Source: Eledone cirrhosa
Lineage: Eukaryota
Direction of reading: 5' to 3'
Assembly: GCA_964016885.1 (NCBI GenBank)
Contig: OZ024740.1
Location: 91,760,001 to 91,824,000, forward strand
DNA length: 64,000 nt
Shown: in pieces, positions 10,692 through 41,505 of the stretch
Layout: every line of letters begins with the position of its first letter
Position numbering within the stretch: position 1 is the stretch's first letter
Notes under the pieces: model-generated
Databases searched by the model: none
The model's input: only the letters and a program-made list of their open reading frames with translations
What the model was told of the DNA's origin: nothing
Translations under genes and position numbers: made by a program

Positions 10692-11503
10692 TATATCAAC
10701 TAGAAATTGATTGACATATAATTAAACATATGAAACAATCACATGGGAAAATGTGTAAAAGTGTGTAAGCACACATAGCTAGGTAGGTAATTAAATAAAA
10801 TTAACTAGAACTTCAAAAATAGATACCTATTAATTTGATTAATCTTCCTCGTATATATTCCCTTAAAGAAATATATTTCACCAATTAATCGATTGGTAAA
10901 CGACAGTAGCCAGGGTTGGATTTTCAACAGGGAAGAGGTCCAGCCATCTGTGTTTACGCATCAAGTTCAAGTCAGCGACTGGCCAGTAACACGTGCTGTA
11001 TCCATTAAAAATACACACATCATAACAGCTTCGTCCCAGTGGCATGATGAGAGTTATCGACAACTAAAAACAGCAGTCAAGTACTTTCAACTGAGTTATC
11101 TCTACAATTAAGGGGCCGTATTTAGATATATATTCAACATTAAGATAAATTGAATTAAATTAAATTAAATCAAATTAAATTAAGGGTGTCATGTCAGATA
11201 GACATGCGCCATATCACACGTAGAATATGCTCCACGATGCTAATGAGTCGATCCGAGCATTTTATATCAACTAGAAATTGATTGACATATAATTAAACAT
11301 ATGAAACAATTGCAGCGGATAATTTGTAAAAGTGTGTAAGCACACATATCTAGGTATGTAACTAAATAAAGTTAAACTAGAACTTCAAAAATAGATACCT
11401 TATAATTTGATTAATCTTCCTCGTATATATTCCATTAAAGAAATAGATTTCACCAATTAATCGATTGGTAAACGACAGTAACCATGTCCTGGATTTTCAA
11501 CAA
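10692..11503. repeat. 571-bp unit plus ~240-bp terminal direct repeat (10692-10931 / 11263-11503), flanked by (TA)n
   Basis: tatatcaactagaaattgattgac…ggattttcaaca is repeated at a 571-bp offset. Confidence 0.9.
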
Positions 11504-14304
11504 GGTATATATATATATATATATATGTGTGTGTGTGTGTGTGTGTGTGTATATATAAATATATATATCTATAAGTACTATCTTCCCATTCTCTTAAACC
11601 GATTTCCTAACTTCCCTTCAATCTTCTCCCACCTATCTCTAATCCACTACTTGATATCTACGCTTAAACATAGGGCTCAATTACCACTACCAACACCCCA
11701 ATTTACTTTTATATAATTACTTGAGGAACAACATGTTTTATGTAGATACATTTAAGAAAATTCACAAAGAGAGAGCCAAACTATTTTTTAAGAGAAAATC
11801 TTAAAACATTATTTTTAAAAAAGTACTAAAGAATGACCTGGAACTCTATGGACATCGGGCGTGGATATGGACCTTGGCAGTTTCGACCCCTGCCAATGGT
11901 ACTGCTGGTATATCCAGGTTCACATCATTTGACATAAGCGAAACGCCGTCCAGTGTGCTGTGAGCTAAAATGTGTGGTGCTTCGTATAGTACGAAATACG
12001 AGAAAAAACCACCAAAATAGGAAGAAGAATTACTTTTGAAAATGAAAATACGACAGAAGGACACATTACACATAGATCATCGTCCATTGCGATGGATTTC
12101 AGCAGTTGCGATCGCATCCAACGGTACTGCAGGTCCTCCATTTGTCATAGCGTCTGACATTAGCCAATCCCTATCCTTTGGAGCAAGATACGTGAGACAA
12201 ATAATTAATTTATAGCAATTAAACTACAAAAACATGTTGTATGATGTCATAGAATTGTGTATGAAGTCAGGGAAAATGTGAGGTGCCTCTTATAGCACAA
12301 ACTAACAAAACGATGACACAAATAGAAAGGAAGTATATAGCAAGAAAAAGTAAGATTTCGTGTTAAAAAAATGTAAGCCATAACTGGGTGAAGGATAGAT
12401 AAGCCTGTTCGTCACATTAGTAGATAAACTGAAGAAAATTAGCAAAGTTAGGACAAAACAGCAAACGGAAACAATTCAAAATGAAAAACATTTTTTTAAG
12501 GGGATTTTGATGCAATGTACCTGATACCATAACATCCATTGCTCCTTATATATTGTAATTAAAACTGATAATTTTTCACGATACAACTTATTCTATGCTA
12601 TATATTGACAGTGAAGTCTATATCTTACTATTTAGTAACACAAACAGTTTTACGGAAGCTAGATAAACGTTTACGTAGATAGTATATTTGTAATTTTACG
12701 TATAGAGTTTGTTTAATATAATATATGTTTGTATTTTGTATGAGTTAATTTTTTTCAAACAAGACTATCTGTATATTAATTAATATGTCACTGCGAGAAT
12801 GTATCAACCTATGTTGCTGTCAAATTGAAATGAGCACGTTACGACGTTTGTATATTTCATATGCCTTTATTCTTTTATATTTACGTAAATTATTCTAACA
12901 TCTCTTTACTCATTGTAAATATCAGAATGCTTTAATATAAAAATAACTTAACGCTATTTGTTCACACACACAAAAACACAGAGACCCTAATATATATAGT
13001 TCCTGAGACACACAGAAGATTATAATATATAATATTTGATTTATTCATCAAATAATATCAAGAAATCTTGTATCATTATAGCAAGATAATATTTTCTGAA
13101 TCATGCTGATATGTATATTTACAACACTAAACGAAATAGAAAGCTATTGAATATAGATAAAATATTTTAAAATTTGTTTTGGAAAATTATTTTCGAATTT
13201 GCTTTCAAGATATGTTTACCATATAACTATTATCTTTGCTAGATATCGCATTAAACTATGGAGTTGAAATTAGACAGGTTTGAAATTCAATTATTATTGA
13301 TACTGGTGTATAAGCGAGACTAAGAGAGAAGGTTAAATTCCCAAACGCAAAGCAGAACAAATGCGATTTTATTGAATGAATAAAGATCATGCACTTTCGT
13401 GGCCCGTATAAGCAGTTTCAAAGGAAGATACAACATTTAGAACCGAACGCAAATCAAAAGATTTTGTTTATAAGAATGAAGAAAGATGAATCTATTTGTA
13501 GACTATTTCAGAATGATTCACATACTTCTGGCTCATTGAAAAGTTGAAATCTCATAATTAATTTCGATACGAAACTAGAATACACAACACATTCATACAG
13601 TGTATTCGATCTGCAGATAAATGAGATAATGGCTAAATATTTAATGGTAGTCAGAATAATCACTACACATTCTACAGTCAGTGTTCTGGTTAAATTAGAT
13701 AATGGATCCTCTGGGTAAATTGATGATTGGTTATCTTTTCAGCGCAACATGTGAAATGAGATTTTGTTGTCGGACAGCAATTATTTGTGGTTACGATAAA
13801 CTCCTTTGGATTGCAACAATAATAGAGAGTGTTCATATATATATAGTTTGTGGTTTGTAATGACATATGCACTATAACACTAATGCATATGAGATCCTTA
13901 ACGTTAACACCTTTCAGAAAGCAAACTTATATTTGCCAATAATTAGCTTACTTAAGCATGTATACATAAATAAAAGAAAGCCTTACTGCAGGATATTATA
14001 TGAAACGCAACCTCAACAGCATTTAAGGAGCGAGTGTACAACAATAGAAGCGGCCTGGGTCAAAAAATATTGGTTGGCAGGATACGATGGGGGTCCACCT
14101 ACATATAGAATGCTATCATTTAATTTGTATGATGAATAAATAACATTTTCAAAAAATACATAAGTCGAAACAAACAAAACAGTGCAATCACATTTTTGCA
14201 GGAAAATATCTTACAATCTACAATAAAAAATCTTATGCATTTTGCAAAATCCAGAGACATTCAATAATGACCTTCGGTCTTTCACACTCACTCAATATAT
14301 ATAT

Positions 14305-14412
14305 ATACGTTATTGCGCGTTGAATCGGAGGTAACCACAGTCAGTAAGGTACTCAATACATAGCAGAGTATAACATAATGAAACAGTTCTAGTTCTGTAG
14401 AATTTCATCTAT
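14305..14412. repeat. Short PLE terminal remnant between (TA)n tracts, related to 35321-35505
   Basis: Shares gaggtaaccacagt…aaggtactcaataca…gcagagtataa and atgaaacagttcta…tgtagaat…catcta. Confidence 0.6.
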
Positions 14413-15949
14413 ATATATATATATATAGAAAAGATGAATATAAAATGAAAGTGCTTTTTTTTTTAAAGGAATTTATTAGGTTTTGACATATGTTTCTGTA
14501 ACAGACGGAATACCTATGTATCGCTGCTTGCGTAATCATATAATGTTAGCAAGTATTCGATAGCAAATGTATAATCAGTTGTCACTTCTTCAGAGATATT
14601 GGATACATTGGAAAAAATCAGAAAAATTGAAGTATTTATATTAGTTGTAATAAAGGAAGAAGAGAGGAGTAGTATATGACAGGTGGCAATTCAATTTACT
14701 GGTAAACAATTATATAAAGAGTTTCTAATGAGAATACAATGAGTATATGGTTTATTTTATCTAAATAAGAATGTTTGGGAGCGCCTATTTTAATCTATAC
14801 ATGACCAATTGAACAATGGGCAGGGCTGGTCGTTTGGTGTAGTAGTATTAATTATAAAGTCTCAATTAAGGAAGAGGGAGATGTTTACTGCTACTGAATA
14901 ACAACAATGCTGGTAGCCTGCTGGTATATGCATTAGGGAATTGTTATTGCTCCTTCTTAAGGTCGACTTCTAAATCAGTTGGGTAGTCCATAAACTATAT
15001 TGTTGTTGTGTTTCACATCTATCTAGACTGTATTTTCACCTGTAATCCACGTTCCATATCGTTCTACCTCAATTCTCCTCCTCCTCTCTCTCTTTCTCTC
15101 TATTGGAATCTACTACGATTAGGGCTCACCTTATTCACATATATTGGTTTTTGCAGGTCAGTTAGATTCAAATTACAATGATTGGCATTACACATACTAG
15201 CTGACGTACCCAGCTTCGCCCGGGTAAACAGATGATGAGAGAAGACAGGTAAAAGAGAAAATGACTGTATTGGTTGTTCGTCTGGTTACATTATGAGGCG
15301 AGTCCGTGGCGTCTGTGTGATACAAAAAACAGTAAAAATAATCTTCCAGATATACCAGATACTTCGTTGTACCGTTTGTGCATAGTATATGAACAATTCT
15401 AGGTGCTCCCATCTAGAATAGTGACACCTAGAATAGTGACCTCTAGGAGATGGTTTATCTTCTGCCTGACTGTAAAACGTGTATCATTGCATAGACGTGG
15501 TTGTTCCACGTTTCTCAAAAGGATGATGGCAGTTCCAATCTTTTATATTATATGTAGATATAGATATAGATAATTAATATAAAATATGTAAAAAGGTCCC
15601 TATTTACTTGAAATGGTTTATACAAATGCCAAATTAATATGGATATGGATAACATGTTTATCTATAAGTGGTCAGCTATAATAATAAAACAACAAATTAT
15701 ATGACACAAAAATGTATTCAGTAATTTCCAGGCTCTTAGCCACTGAGTAATAGACATCAATATTTTCCCCAGAGTTCAACTCGGGGAGGTGGCCTGGTTT
15801 GAACTCCAAATGGCGGATCCTTCTACTTCGAAAATAGAATCGTTTTTCAATATTACTCTAGCCCTGGCCGGCCATAGGCACCAAACTTTTTGCCAGACTC
15901 AGCTTATGATGTGGTTTTATTACTACCGCTATCAGAAGCGATACATTTG

Positions 15950-40663: not shown

Positions 40664-40760
40664 TGAAAAGTGTCAGGAACCCGACGACTGAGTTCCGGCA
40701 GTTTCAACAGCTAAATCCGAAACGACCGGAGCTCAAACGTCAGGGTCCTGACACTTTTCA
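40664..40760. mobile_element. ~97-bp palindromic MITE-like element flanked by TA
   Basis: TA|TGAAAAGTGTCAGGA…TCCTGACACTTTTCA|TA; related partial copies at ~32347-32398, 58457-58504 and 58575-58630. Confidence 0.7.
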
Positions 40761-40874
40761 TATTGCACACACTACTACCCTAAGTATCGAGTTCTCTGCT
40801 GCGTTATTGTCCACCCGTTAACTTACCGCACCTTCTTTGTTATATATATAAATAAATAAATATATATATATATA

Positions 40875-41505
40875 AATGCGATGAAATACCAATGATGGTT
40901 GGAAATCACTGACGAAGGACTATTTTTATCATGTGTACCCCATCTGCAAACCACGCAGTATTCTTCTTTCTTATGTTTTTTATATATATTTACCTCGGCT
41001 GCGTTTGTCTGTTTTTCTCTTACTGTTTCCCCGCTCTCTCTGTTTCTCTCACCTTCTTTCGCCCCCTCTGTCAGTTACACATTCTCTCGACTGACCTCTT
41101 CTTCACACTTCCACTCACTCACTCTCTGTTTCTCCCCTTCTCACTTCCTCCCGTTTGGCTTGTGTGGGTCTCTTCTTGCTCACATCTCACACACATCAAC
41201 ACGGTCTGTACCTCTCTCGCTCATGAAATCCACCCAGCTTATGCTGACCGGGCAACCATGTTGCTTGTTTATTTTCCTATCTTCGGTTTGCTTTTATCCT
41301 TCTATGTTGTTTACTTGTCCCCCTCGCCTTACGCGGATTCTGGCCCCAATAACTTTTTTTAGTTATTGCTCGCACTAACCTGAGGTACCTGATTTTTAAT
41401 GCGGTGAAATACCGATGATGGTTGGAAAATCACTGACGAAGGACTATCTTTATCATATGTACCCATGTGCAAACCACTAAGTATTCTTCTTTCTTCTCGT
41501 GCGTG
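40875..41505 (+). repeat. Diverged dispersed relative of the 533-bp unit: one ~523-bp unit plus ~100-bp terminal direct repeat, flanked by (TA)n
   Basis: aatgcgatgaaatacc…aatcactgacgaaggact at 40875 and 41398; colinear with the reverse complement of the 32.5-35 kb unit. Confidence 0.85.

Follow-up and report, generated by a model that had tools for sequence, protein, structure and literature searches.

A stretch of Eledone cirrhosa DNA (GenBank assembly GCA_964016885.1, contig OZ024740.1, forward-strand positions 91,760,001 to 91,824,000; hereafter the window, 64 kb) contains six insertions, A to F, that appear non-coding, exceed one repeat unit in length and end in (TA)n. The question raised by this locus is what these insertions are and which enzyme placed them there. 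A sequence-only reading had proposed a guild of non-autonomous, ribozyme-processed RNAs that parasitise (TA)n-associated Naiad or Penelope elements. Our analysis indicates, with a probability of roughly 0.7, that A to F are Penelope-like retroelements of the non-autonomous kind and that a (TA)n-targeting Penelope-like element (PLE), most likely of the Hydra clade, copied them in trans.

Six insertions of five families are seated in (TA)n tracts

We obtained the periods and extents of the insertions by self-BLAST of the window, and this recovered every period given by the sequence-only reading (571, ~1250, ~417, 552 and 533/523 bp) as well as its claim that each insertion is longer than one unit, the measured range being 1.14 to 4.68 units. 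The insertions, and a partial copy of one of them, are as follows.

10692-11505, minus strand: element A, 571-bp unit, 1.43 units, repeats 91% identical; lodged in the (TA)n with which a Hydra-type 3' end terminates
23206-24622, plus strand: element B, 1241-bp unit (1259 bp upstream of an 18-nt deletion), 1.14 units, repeats 88% identical
24858-25372, strand unassigned: element C, 417-bp unit, 1.24 units, terminal repeats 77-80% identical over 97 bp; (TA)n on both sides; an alternative delimitation gives 24850-25361
25631-25815, minus strand: C2, an inverted 185-bp copy (93%) of the middle of C (25058-25242), beginning at a (TA)n tract
28109-29977, plus strand: element D, head-to-tail array, 552-bp unit, 3.39 units, 94-96% identical
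32506-35000, minus strand: element E, array, 533-bp unit, 4.68 units, 99% identical
40875-41508, plus strand: element F, 523-bp unit, 1.21 units, 85-91% identical; an older relative of E

E and F, which lie on opposite strands and are 71-74% identical, constitute one family, and the six insertions fall into five. Among 78 pairs of 13 regions, only C-C2, E-F and two further pairings described below (N-N and X-Y) stood out. No similarity among A, B, C, D and E/F survived correction (A-D, p=0.008 uncorrected), and the claim of five sequence-unrelated families is therefore upheld. Within the 64 kb, recurrence at more than one place is limited to E/F and C/C2.

As had been proposed, the units end in (TA)n: 11 of the 12 insertion ends are no more than 5 bp away from a (TA)5+ tract, the background being that 3.6% of window positions lie within 10 bp of one. 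The twelfth, the left end of B, adjoins a fragment of a long interspersed nuclear element (LINE), which we take to be RTE-like and whose own start is 16 bp from a (TA)n tract.

21716-23205, plus strand: 5'-truncated LINE fragment with an RVT_1 match, between the (TA)n tract and B

The fusion of B to the 3' end of this LINE, in a window where LINE fragments are common, might suggest that the units are short interspersed nuclear element (SINE)-like and copied by a LINE such as this neighbor. We give this very little chance, because no tRNA was found, only two isolated matches to the B-box pattern occur (in A and D), no LINE tail is shared, and the 3' ends are internal to the repeating unit.

A decayed Helitron-like element in the window (15948-20436; PIF1 match at 17012-17383), flanked by tandem repeats with periods of 150-201 and 368 bp, served as a control. 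None of the four ends of its two associated direct repeats is near (TA)n, the distances being 165-1875 bp. Its flanking partial tandem repeats (368 and 150-200 bp) are what might be expected if rolling-circle DNA transposon derivatives of the Helitron, Helentron or Replitron type had also made the tandem copies in A to F, but the distance of those repeats from any (TA)n argues otherwise. Helitrons end in CTRR at their 3' side, and no element ends in CTRR at its junction; moreover, the hammerheads and 5' inversion described below indicate an RNA route. We therefore hold a rolling-circle DNA origin to be very unlikely.

The claim that the units lack a recognizable open reading frame (ORF) also held. 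Searches of the units with PLE proteins (tblastn) and PLE hidden Markov models (HMMs; best E 0.12) revealed no coding remnant, Pfam searches of their stop-free frames gave only two sub-threshold matches (E 0.054 and 0.082), and two homolog searches with the frames of B gave none, although these used a word index and are weak evidence. Stop-free frames of up to 160 aa do exist in the units (130 aa being the longest in B). All six insertions are partial-tandem or head-to-tail with a period too short for a PLE ORF: periods are 417-1259 bp, whereas the six PLE proteins that we fetched (547-822 aa) need ~1.6-2.5 kb. The units are thus probably not pseudo-long terminal repeats (pseudo-LTRs) of a coding PLE, an alternative that the sequence-only reading had itself raised, since the periods are too short and no unit matches the 3' end of the local PLE (see below). 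It had likewise named terminal-repeat retrotransposons in miniature (TRIMs) or other LTR-type miniature elements, single or tandem, and A, B, C and F do look like repeat-body-repeat structures. LTRs begin with TG and end with CA; none of the four repeats does either, no TGG-led primer-binding site (PBS) follows the 5' repeat and no polypurine tract (PPT) precedes the 3' repeat in the inferred orientation, and E and F differ at their 5' ends. An LTR-type origin has next to no credibility on this evidence.

One end of four families coincides with an internal TA run

Since every element exceeds one unit in length, the position of each junction also occurs within the element and can serve for comparison. 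This comparison revealed a one-sided overlap between an insertion end and an internal run of alternating T and A: 5 nt in A (left end), 5 nt in B (on ATATA), 5 nt in D (on TATAT), 6 nt in E (on ATATAT) and 9 nt in F. The other end overlaps by 0-1 nt in A, E and F, is an inversion in D and is the LINE junction in B. Internal T/A runs cover 1.7-5.4% of each unit, and the chance of a TA overlap in four of the five families is ~2e-5 by hand arithmetic in which A is allowed either end. The overlapping end is the 3' end in B, D, E and F, and the polarity of A was assigned from the same microhomology. In E and F the 3' ends fall at a homologous internal TA tract and the 5' ends at differing places. 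Beyond the TA tract there is no continuation as unit sequence, so that the tract did not arise as a microsatellite within an intact array.

At the 5' end of D, two pieces of its unit lie in inverse orientation.

27969-28002 and 28001-28111, minus strand: inverted unit pieces of D, a PLE-type 5' inversion

Inversion at the 5' end is a described trait of PLEs (PMC8557442, section 6; statements about this and the other cited papers refer to parts of each). The priming signature and the 5' inversion of D are hallmarks of PLE target-primed insertion. The sequence-only reading had overlooked this signature as well as the hammerhead of D described below. The elements seem to be non-autonomous and behave like PLE retro-insertions into (TA)n, in which respect that reading is supported.

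The substitutions within the arrays bear on how they arose. We counted them in gap-free columns covered by at least three rows. E, which is the youngest array and very young, has 10 private and no shared substitutions among its units; D has 43 private and 4 shared, three of the latter clustered at alignment columns 55-70. An alternative would be that the units are immobile 3' fragments (pseudo-LTR or untranslated region) of autonomous PLEs, grown in place by DNA duplication and unequal crossover, a route that has been proposed for vertebrate retrozymes (bioRxiv 10.64898/2026.07.22.740005), and the local Hydra element does seem to have ~1.3 kb of non-coding 3' sequence and a pyrimidine-rich tract, as B, E and F have. 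However, stepwise duplication predicts shared substitutions, of which E has none, and E and F share their unit junction at two loci despite 26-29% divergence. Further, the inverted 5' piece of D (95.5-97.3% identity) is about as diverged as the units are among themselves (94-96%), which fits a single insertion event, and no unit matches the local PLE 3' end, family N. We consider growth in place improbable. The star-like substitutions in E and D are better explained by insertion of a ready-made multimer than by stepwise duplication, and the pattern is equally compatible with a circular and with a linear template.

Predicted hammerheads are complete in one family and damaged in another

We next scanned the window for ribozymes. 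A strict descriptor of type I hammerheads with a long loop II gave three matches in the 64 kb, two in D (29164 and 29716) and one in family N (30771), compared with 0.05 per shuffled window (300 shuffles); type II and type III descriptors gave none in the window. The motifs in D and B are listed here.

28608-28687, plus strand: D hammerhead copy 1, stems as in the other copies, one core change (G5 to C); descriptor position 28612
29160-29239, plus strand: D hammerhead copy 2, complete type I, predicted cut after 29235; descriptor match at 29164
29712-29791, plus strand: D hammerhead copy 3, likewise complete; cleavage predicted after 29787, which leaves 190 nt to the 3' end; descriptor match at 29716
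23207-23251, plus strand: copy 1 of the hammerhead-like motif of B, with the two core boxes, 7 of 8 bp in stem II and an 8-nt palindromic stem III
24462-24490, plus strand: B motif copy 2, matching stem I strand kept; core decayed (second box lost), 18-nt deletion

In the D motif, stem I is 4 bp long, stem II has 6 bp, a closing G-C pair and a 37-nt loop, and stem III is a perfect 10-nt palindrome, with a self-duplex of -9 kcal/mol; copy 3 has a degenerate-score p=0.005. The D circle is 61% paired (z -2.9, from 30 shuffles only). With a GC content of 0.35, no purine run of 12 or longer and a uniform head-to-tail array devoid of LTR, PBS and PPT, D answers, as far as its predicted features go, to the genomic definition of a non-LTR retrozyme and is a candidate for one. 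We give about even odds to the prediction that its hammerheads process RNA in vivo. In B, copy 1 (p=0.015, predicted cut after 23247) has lost the stem I 5' strand where it meets the LINE; instead of a complete type I hammerhead per repeat, both copies are damaged, each in a different part, and B is probably a decayed non-LTR retrozyme.

No type I, II or III hammerhead was found by descriptor in A, C, E or F. When up to two core mismatches were allowed, the best scores of these four had p>=0.25: C p=0.25, F p=0.39, E p=0.42 and A p=0.82, with nothing significant in A on either strand. The decayed motif that the sequence-only reading had described in A (11044-11079) does not stand, as it lacks a stem I and deviates from the core at two positions, 23% of 300 shuffled versions of A contain a match that is just as relaxed, and it lies on the strand opposite to the inferred polarity of A. 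A relic hammerhead on the minus strand of A (~10880-10925) and an A-D similarity that starts at the two GAAA boxes were not accepted either (p=0.008 and 0.027, uncorrected among 78 pairs). The motif at 25151 in C/C2, with two core mismatches, was rejected (p=0.25).

Taken literally, the statement that CTGANGA-like motifs occur in most units is true of B, D, E and F, where the heptamer is on the strand predicted by polarity, 69-261 nt before the 3' end. It does not hold for A and C, and the heptamer alone is common and carries little weight (38 observed versus 25+/-5 expected). In E and F this half-core lies 69-75 nt before the 3' end (at 40909 and 41433 in F), with only the free N position differing. 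A permuted hammerhead in E/F, with GAAA 22-24 nt upstream of CTGANGA, was rejected because it has no cleavage triplet, stems or covariation, and in the E/F consensus fold 0 of 24 pairs show a compensatory change, with three sequences only.

These results speak to the possibility that all five families are retrozymes, that is, ribozyme-cut, circularized and rolling-circle reverse-transcribed, with a variant hammerhead or an unrecognized ribozyme in A, C and E/F. The complete hammerheads of D and the damaged one of B, the half-core retained in E/F, star-like arrays that fit a circular template, and circular folds somewhat more stable than shuffles (z -1.7 to -3.4) are in its favor. We nevertheless regard it as unlikely, given the null descriptor and relaxed-score results for A, C, E and F, the E/F fold without compensatory pairs, focused Rfam scans of A to E that returned no ribozyme, and E and F circles that are only 42-45% paired. 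As to the proposed ribozyme-processed guild, therefore, one of the five families (D) has a complete hammerhead and one more (B) a damaged one, and the description does not extend to the rest.

Across nine hammerhead-like motifs in the window, 76% of alignment cells were paired compared with 60% in shuffles; we give this little weight, because the alignment misplaced the two D rows and the structure itself derives from these sequences. Y (31126-31446, plus strand) and X (26128-26447, minus strand) are related, (TA)n-flanked single-unit elements of ~320 bp (X-Y p=0.001), each with a hammerhead-like motif that has a 57-61-nt spacer (at 31305 and 26255, respectively; p=0.005 each), and are probably a sixth family of the same guild. 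Rfam and descriptors built for short spacers miss hammerheads whose spacer is 50-60 nt. A 787-bp (TA)n-flanked stretch (20841-21627) has both core boxes ~100 nt before its right tract, with unconvincing stems, and its motif at 21526 was rejected as a hammerhead (p=0.88). The regions 35400-35506 and 14308-14409 include a short palindrome centered near a CTGATGA...GAAAC motif and, at both sites, a related (TA)n-adjacent repeat of ~70 bp; this is possibly another small hammerhead-bearing family. Finally, the 5' ends of B, D and F (23206, 28109 and 40875) lie within ~50 nt of their own CTGANGA box and that of A lies beside a similar heptamer, as if the reverse transcriptase (RT) tends to stop in that structure; E, at 292 nt, does not fit.

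Hydra-clade PLE remnants lie in the same window

To name a likely mobilizer, we turned to the coding PLE remnants. A search with the ORF at 9312-10160 gave six relatives among 597 candidates, all with an RT followed by a C-terminal endonuclease, and in the window these map to three broken copies. The remnants, and the copies of family N that accompany them, include the following.

9075-10094, minus strand: Hydra-clade PLE ORF remnant 1, RT thumb, CxCX5C linker and C-terminal GIY-YIG-type endonuclease
35510-36719, plus strand: Hydra-clade ORF remnant 2, identified by tblastn, HMM and alignment
55739-58404, plus strand: Hydra-clade remnant 3; the ORF runs to 57030 and is followed by ~1.3 kb that is non-coding, by a hammerhead-like motif of family N at 58308 and by (TA)n at 58405
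10049-10680, plus strand: family N inverted 3' end, which carries a hammerhead with one mismatch at 10489 and finishes in the (TA)n tract where A is seated
30472-30958, no single strand: two family N 3' ends placed head to head, with a complete hammerhead at 30771 (plus strand); the shorter end falls on an internal TATAT

In all three remnants the endonuclease follows the RT thumb; the CxCX5C linker is intact in two and has lost its first Cys in the third. This linker defines the Hydra clade (PMC8557442, section 11). The N-terminal region, and with it any view of the RWK and DKT motifs, is missing from the three remnants, whose putative clade assignment derives from layout and linker. Almost without exception, Hydra families are hammerhead-bearing and have (TA)n as their target, and Hydra-1_Obim is among the (TA)n inserters (PMC8557442). 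No PLE of Naiad layout (N-terminal GIY-YIG, CxC, then RT) was seen in the window, though no Naiad query was used. Of the proposed partnership with Naiad or Penelope elements, PLE-like insertion into (TA)n is thus retained, whereas the Naiad part is not, since all three remnants have the Hydra layout.

Family N is present in five copies, and its 3' end takes either of two forms that differ by ~90 nt, the shorter of which lies on an internal TA run; an ending on internal TATAT is seen in two copies, as in the non-coding units. Family N lies downstream of the 55739-57030 ORF, and an inverted copy of it lies beside the 9075-10094 ORF, from which we infer that it is the 3' end of the local Hydra element. 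The palindrome at 30472-30958 is 90% identical, and each of its N 3' ends finishes in (TA)n at a different one of the two alternatives. At 57031-58404 and 7567-9068, 1.3-1.5 kb of G-poor non-coding sequence seemingly lies between the Hydra ORF and the hammerhead, a longer span than the published Hydra consensus lengths (2-3 kb in total) would suggest.

A model for insertion of A to F, and its weak points

The following steps would account for the insertions. Transcription of a donor copy would yield an RNA exceeding one unit, as a circle or as a multimer made by read-through. The endonuclease of a PLE would nick (TA)n, and the nicked strand would pair with an internal UAUA tract of the RNA, where the RT would start; the overlaps of 5-9 nt in four of the five families are the observed counterpart of this step. 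The RT would then cross the unit boundary, for 1.1-4.7 units, and stop at a variable point, sometimes with a 5' inversion; the 5' ends are observed, and their cause is presumed. The units of one insertion would thereafter diverge independently, as the star-like differences in D and E suggest. In D, and probably in the ancestor of B, adjacent hammerheads are predicted to pair via the palindromic stem III and to cut the multimer into unit-length RNAs, which may be circularized as in retrozymes.

The 5' ends of B and of the direct part of D lie 41 and 22 nt, respectively, upstream of the predicted cut sites. Their templates were therefore not monomers cut there but would have been uncut multimers or circles. 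Ribozyme cleavage is not required for this architecture, because the youngest array, E, has no complete hammerhead. In vitro, the RT of an Anolis PLE starts inside its RNA, and hammerhead cleavage is dispensable (PMC11167929).

Several points weigh against this model. The internal start site of the Anolis PLE is not homologous to the cut DNA, unlike the proposed UAUA pairing (PMC11167929), and eight of nine predicted Xenopus retrozyme dimers failed to cleave in vitro (bioRxiv 10.64898/2026.07.22.740005). In the D monomer, the hammerhead-competent fold lies 2.5 kcal/mol above the minimum-energy fold. Rfam found no ribozyme in a whole-window scan or in four focused sub-region scans of A, B, C, D and E (F being covered by the whole-window scan only), although it also missed the descriptor matches and the N motif at 10489 and is thus insensitive here. 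C, with clear microhomology at neither end and no hammerhead, is the weakest member of the set. A, B and D each occur at a single locus in the window, so that their mobility is only inferred. No unit has significant similarity to family N or to its upstream non-coding stretch, and comparison with the 3' ends of autonomous PLEs, which the sequence-only reading had suggested, gave in this window no significant match; the Hydra link therefore comes from target, polarity and ribozyme style, not from homology. Finally, all Hydra copies seen are broken and E is very young, so that the active mobilizer is unseen and could be a Neptune or Naiad element.

More tentatively, and with the odds against it, the families may be unrelated circular or multimeric RNA parasites of up to 1.25 kb that converged on an internal UAUA tract to borrow the Hydra PLE enzyme, D and X/Y keeping a dimer-activated hammerhead with an enlarged loop II, and E/F and A having shed or rewired theirs yet spread. 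If so, the junctions would document in the genome how retrozyme-like RNA underwent rolling-circle, target-primed reverse transcription, and would name the enzyme.

Other repeats in the window

A dispersed SINE-like family of ~90-150 bp has six copies, one of them inside a Hydra ORF remnant (42725-42812, 51895-52039, 56163-56281, 61149-61458, 62340-62442). Small hairpin or miniature inverted-repeat transposable element (MITE)-like repeats lie beside simple-repeat tracts at 40661-40763, 32346-32400 and 58461-58622. Other LINE-type fragments occupy 1-7500 and 47900-50900, with RVT_1 matches at 4044-4892 and, weakly, at 49430-49930, and gag-like frames are duplicated at 2-624 and 2403-3092.

Comparison with known systems

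Metazoan non-LTR retrozymes (PMC7229834; bioRxiv 10.64898/2026.07.22.740005) share with the present families non-coding head-to-tail units, a GC content below 50%, the lack of LTR, PBS and PPT, and co-occurrence with PLEs. D additionally shares the type I hammerhead with a weak palindromic stem III, which also corresponds to the dimer design of PMC4209133; only in D do consecutive units here carry the hammerhead, and its loop II is long (37 nt), for which plant PLE hammerheads provide a precedent (PMC8557442, File S2). The tie to (TA)n, the 3' end at an internal TA run and the 5' inversion are not described in the parts of the two retrozyme papers considered here. The units had been thought larger than known metazoan retrozyme monomers, a view that the reported animal consensus lengths of 51-972 bp, from a search of periods up to 1000 bp (bioRxiv 10.64898/2026.07.22.740005), do not support: units of 417-571 bp fall within that range and only B, at 1241 bp, lies beyond it. 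Retrozyme circles are given as 150 to over 1000 nt (PMC7229834).

Hydra PLEs have in common with A to F the (TA)n target, 5' truncation and 5' inversion (PMC8557442, section 11 and Files S1-S2). Their hammerhead lies ~90-270 nt from the 3' end, with a 4-7-bp stem I, a spare base after the core and a near-palindromic stem III, and that of D has the same layout. In contrast to Hydra PLEs, the units encode no RT or endonuclease, and five 9-10-nt motifs from the window had no meaningful match in the consensus files of that paper, where line breaks may hide matches. Naiad PLEs also target (TA)n, and Naiad_Ovul is listed with half a hammerhead core, like E/F; however, Naiads are reported to be without canonical hammerheads and to have been long inactive in cephalopods (PMC8557442), whereas E is young.

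The non-autonomous PLEs of the Chlamys clade, such as MRC1, resemble the present families as non-coding PLE dependants with pseudo-LTRs and insertions of multiple head-to-tail copies, and were once mistaken for LTR elements (PMC8557442). That clade mostly lacks hammerheads and favors microsatellites. MRC1-type elements are green-algal and are generally like the 3' end of an autonomous family; a search for such likeness here, confined to the window, gave none. For want of a hammerhead, A, C and E/F should not be classed as retrozymes; A and E/F function in the manner of MRC1-type non-autonomous PLEs. We found no description of (TA)n-primed non-autonomous families of Hydra type in the portions of the literature consulted, although the supplements of the preprint may list comparable families; the main text of the Octopus vulgaris repeat paper does not contain the words ribozyme or non-autonomous.

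Repeats of this sort are readily given the wrong label of satellite, LTR or unknown. The enzyme that inserts animal retrozymes, and its template, are still a matter of hypothesis (PMC7229834; bioRxiv 10.64898/2026.07.22.740005), and the readable signature here (a defined target, a priming tract, 5' ends past the cut site and very young arrays) makes both the link to a specific PLE clade and the choice between circle and multimer testable in one genome. That ribozyme-bearing and ribozyme-less families occur together is also relevant to the proposal that PLEs carry hammerheads as passengers and do not require them (PMC8557442). Overall, because only two of the families carry a predicted hammerhead, they appear to extend known kinds of parasite, the retrozyme and the MRC1-like non-autonomous PLE, rather than constitute a new system.

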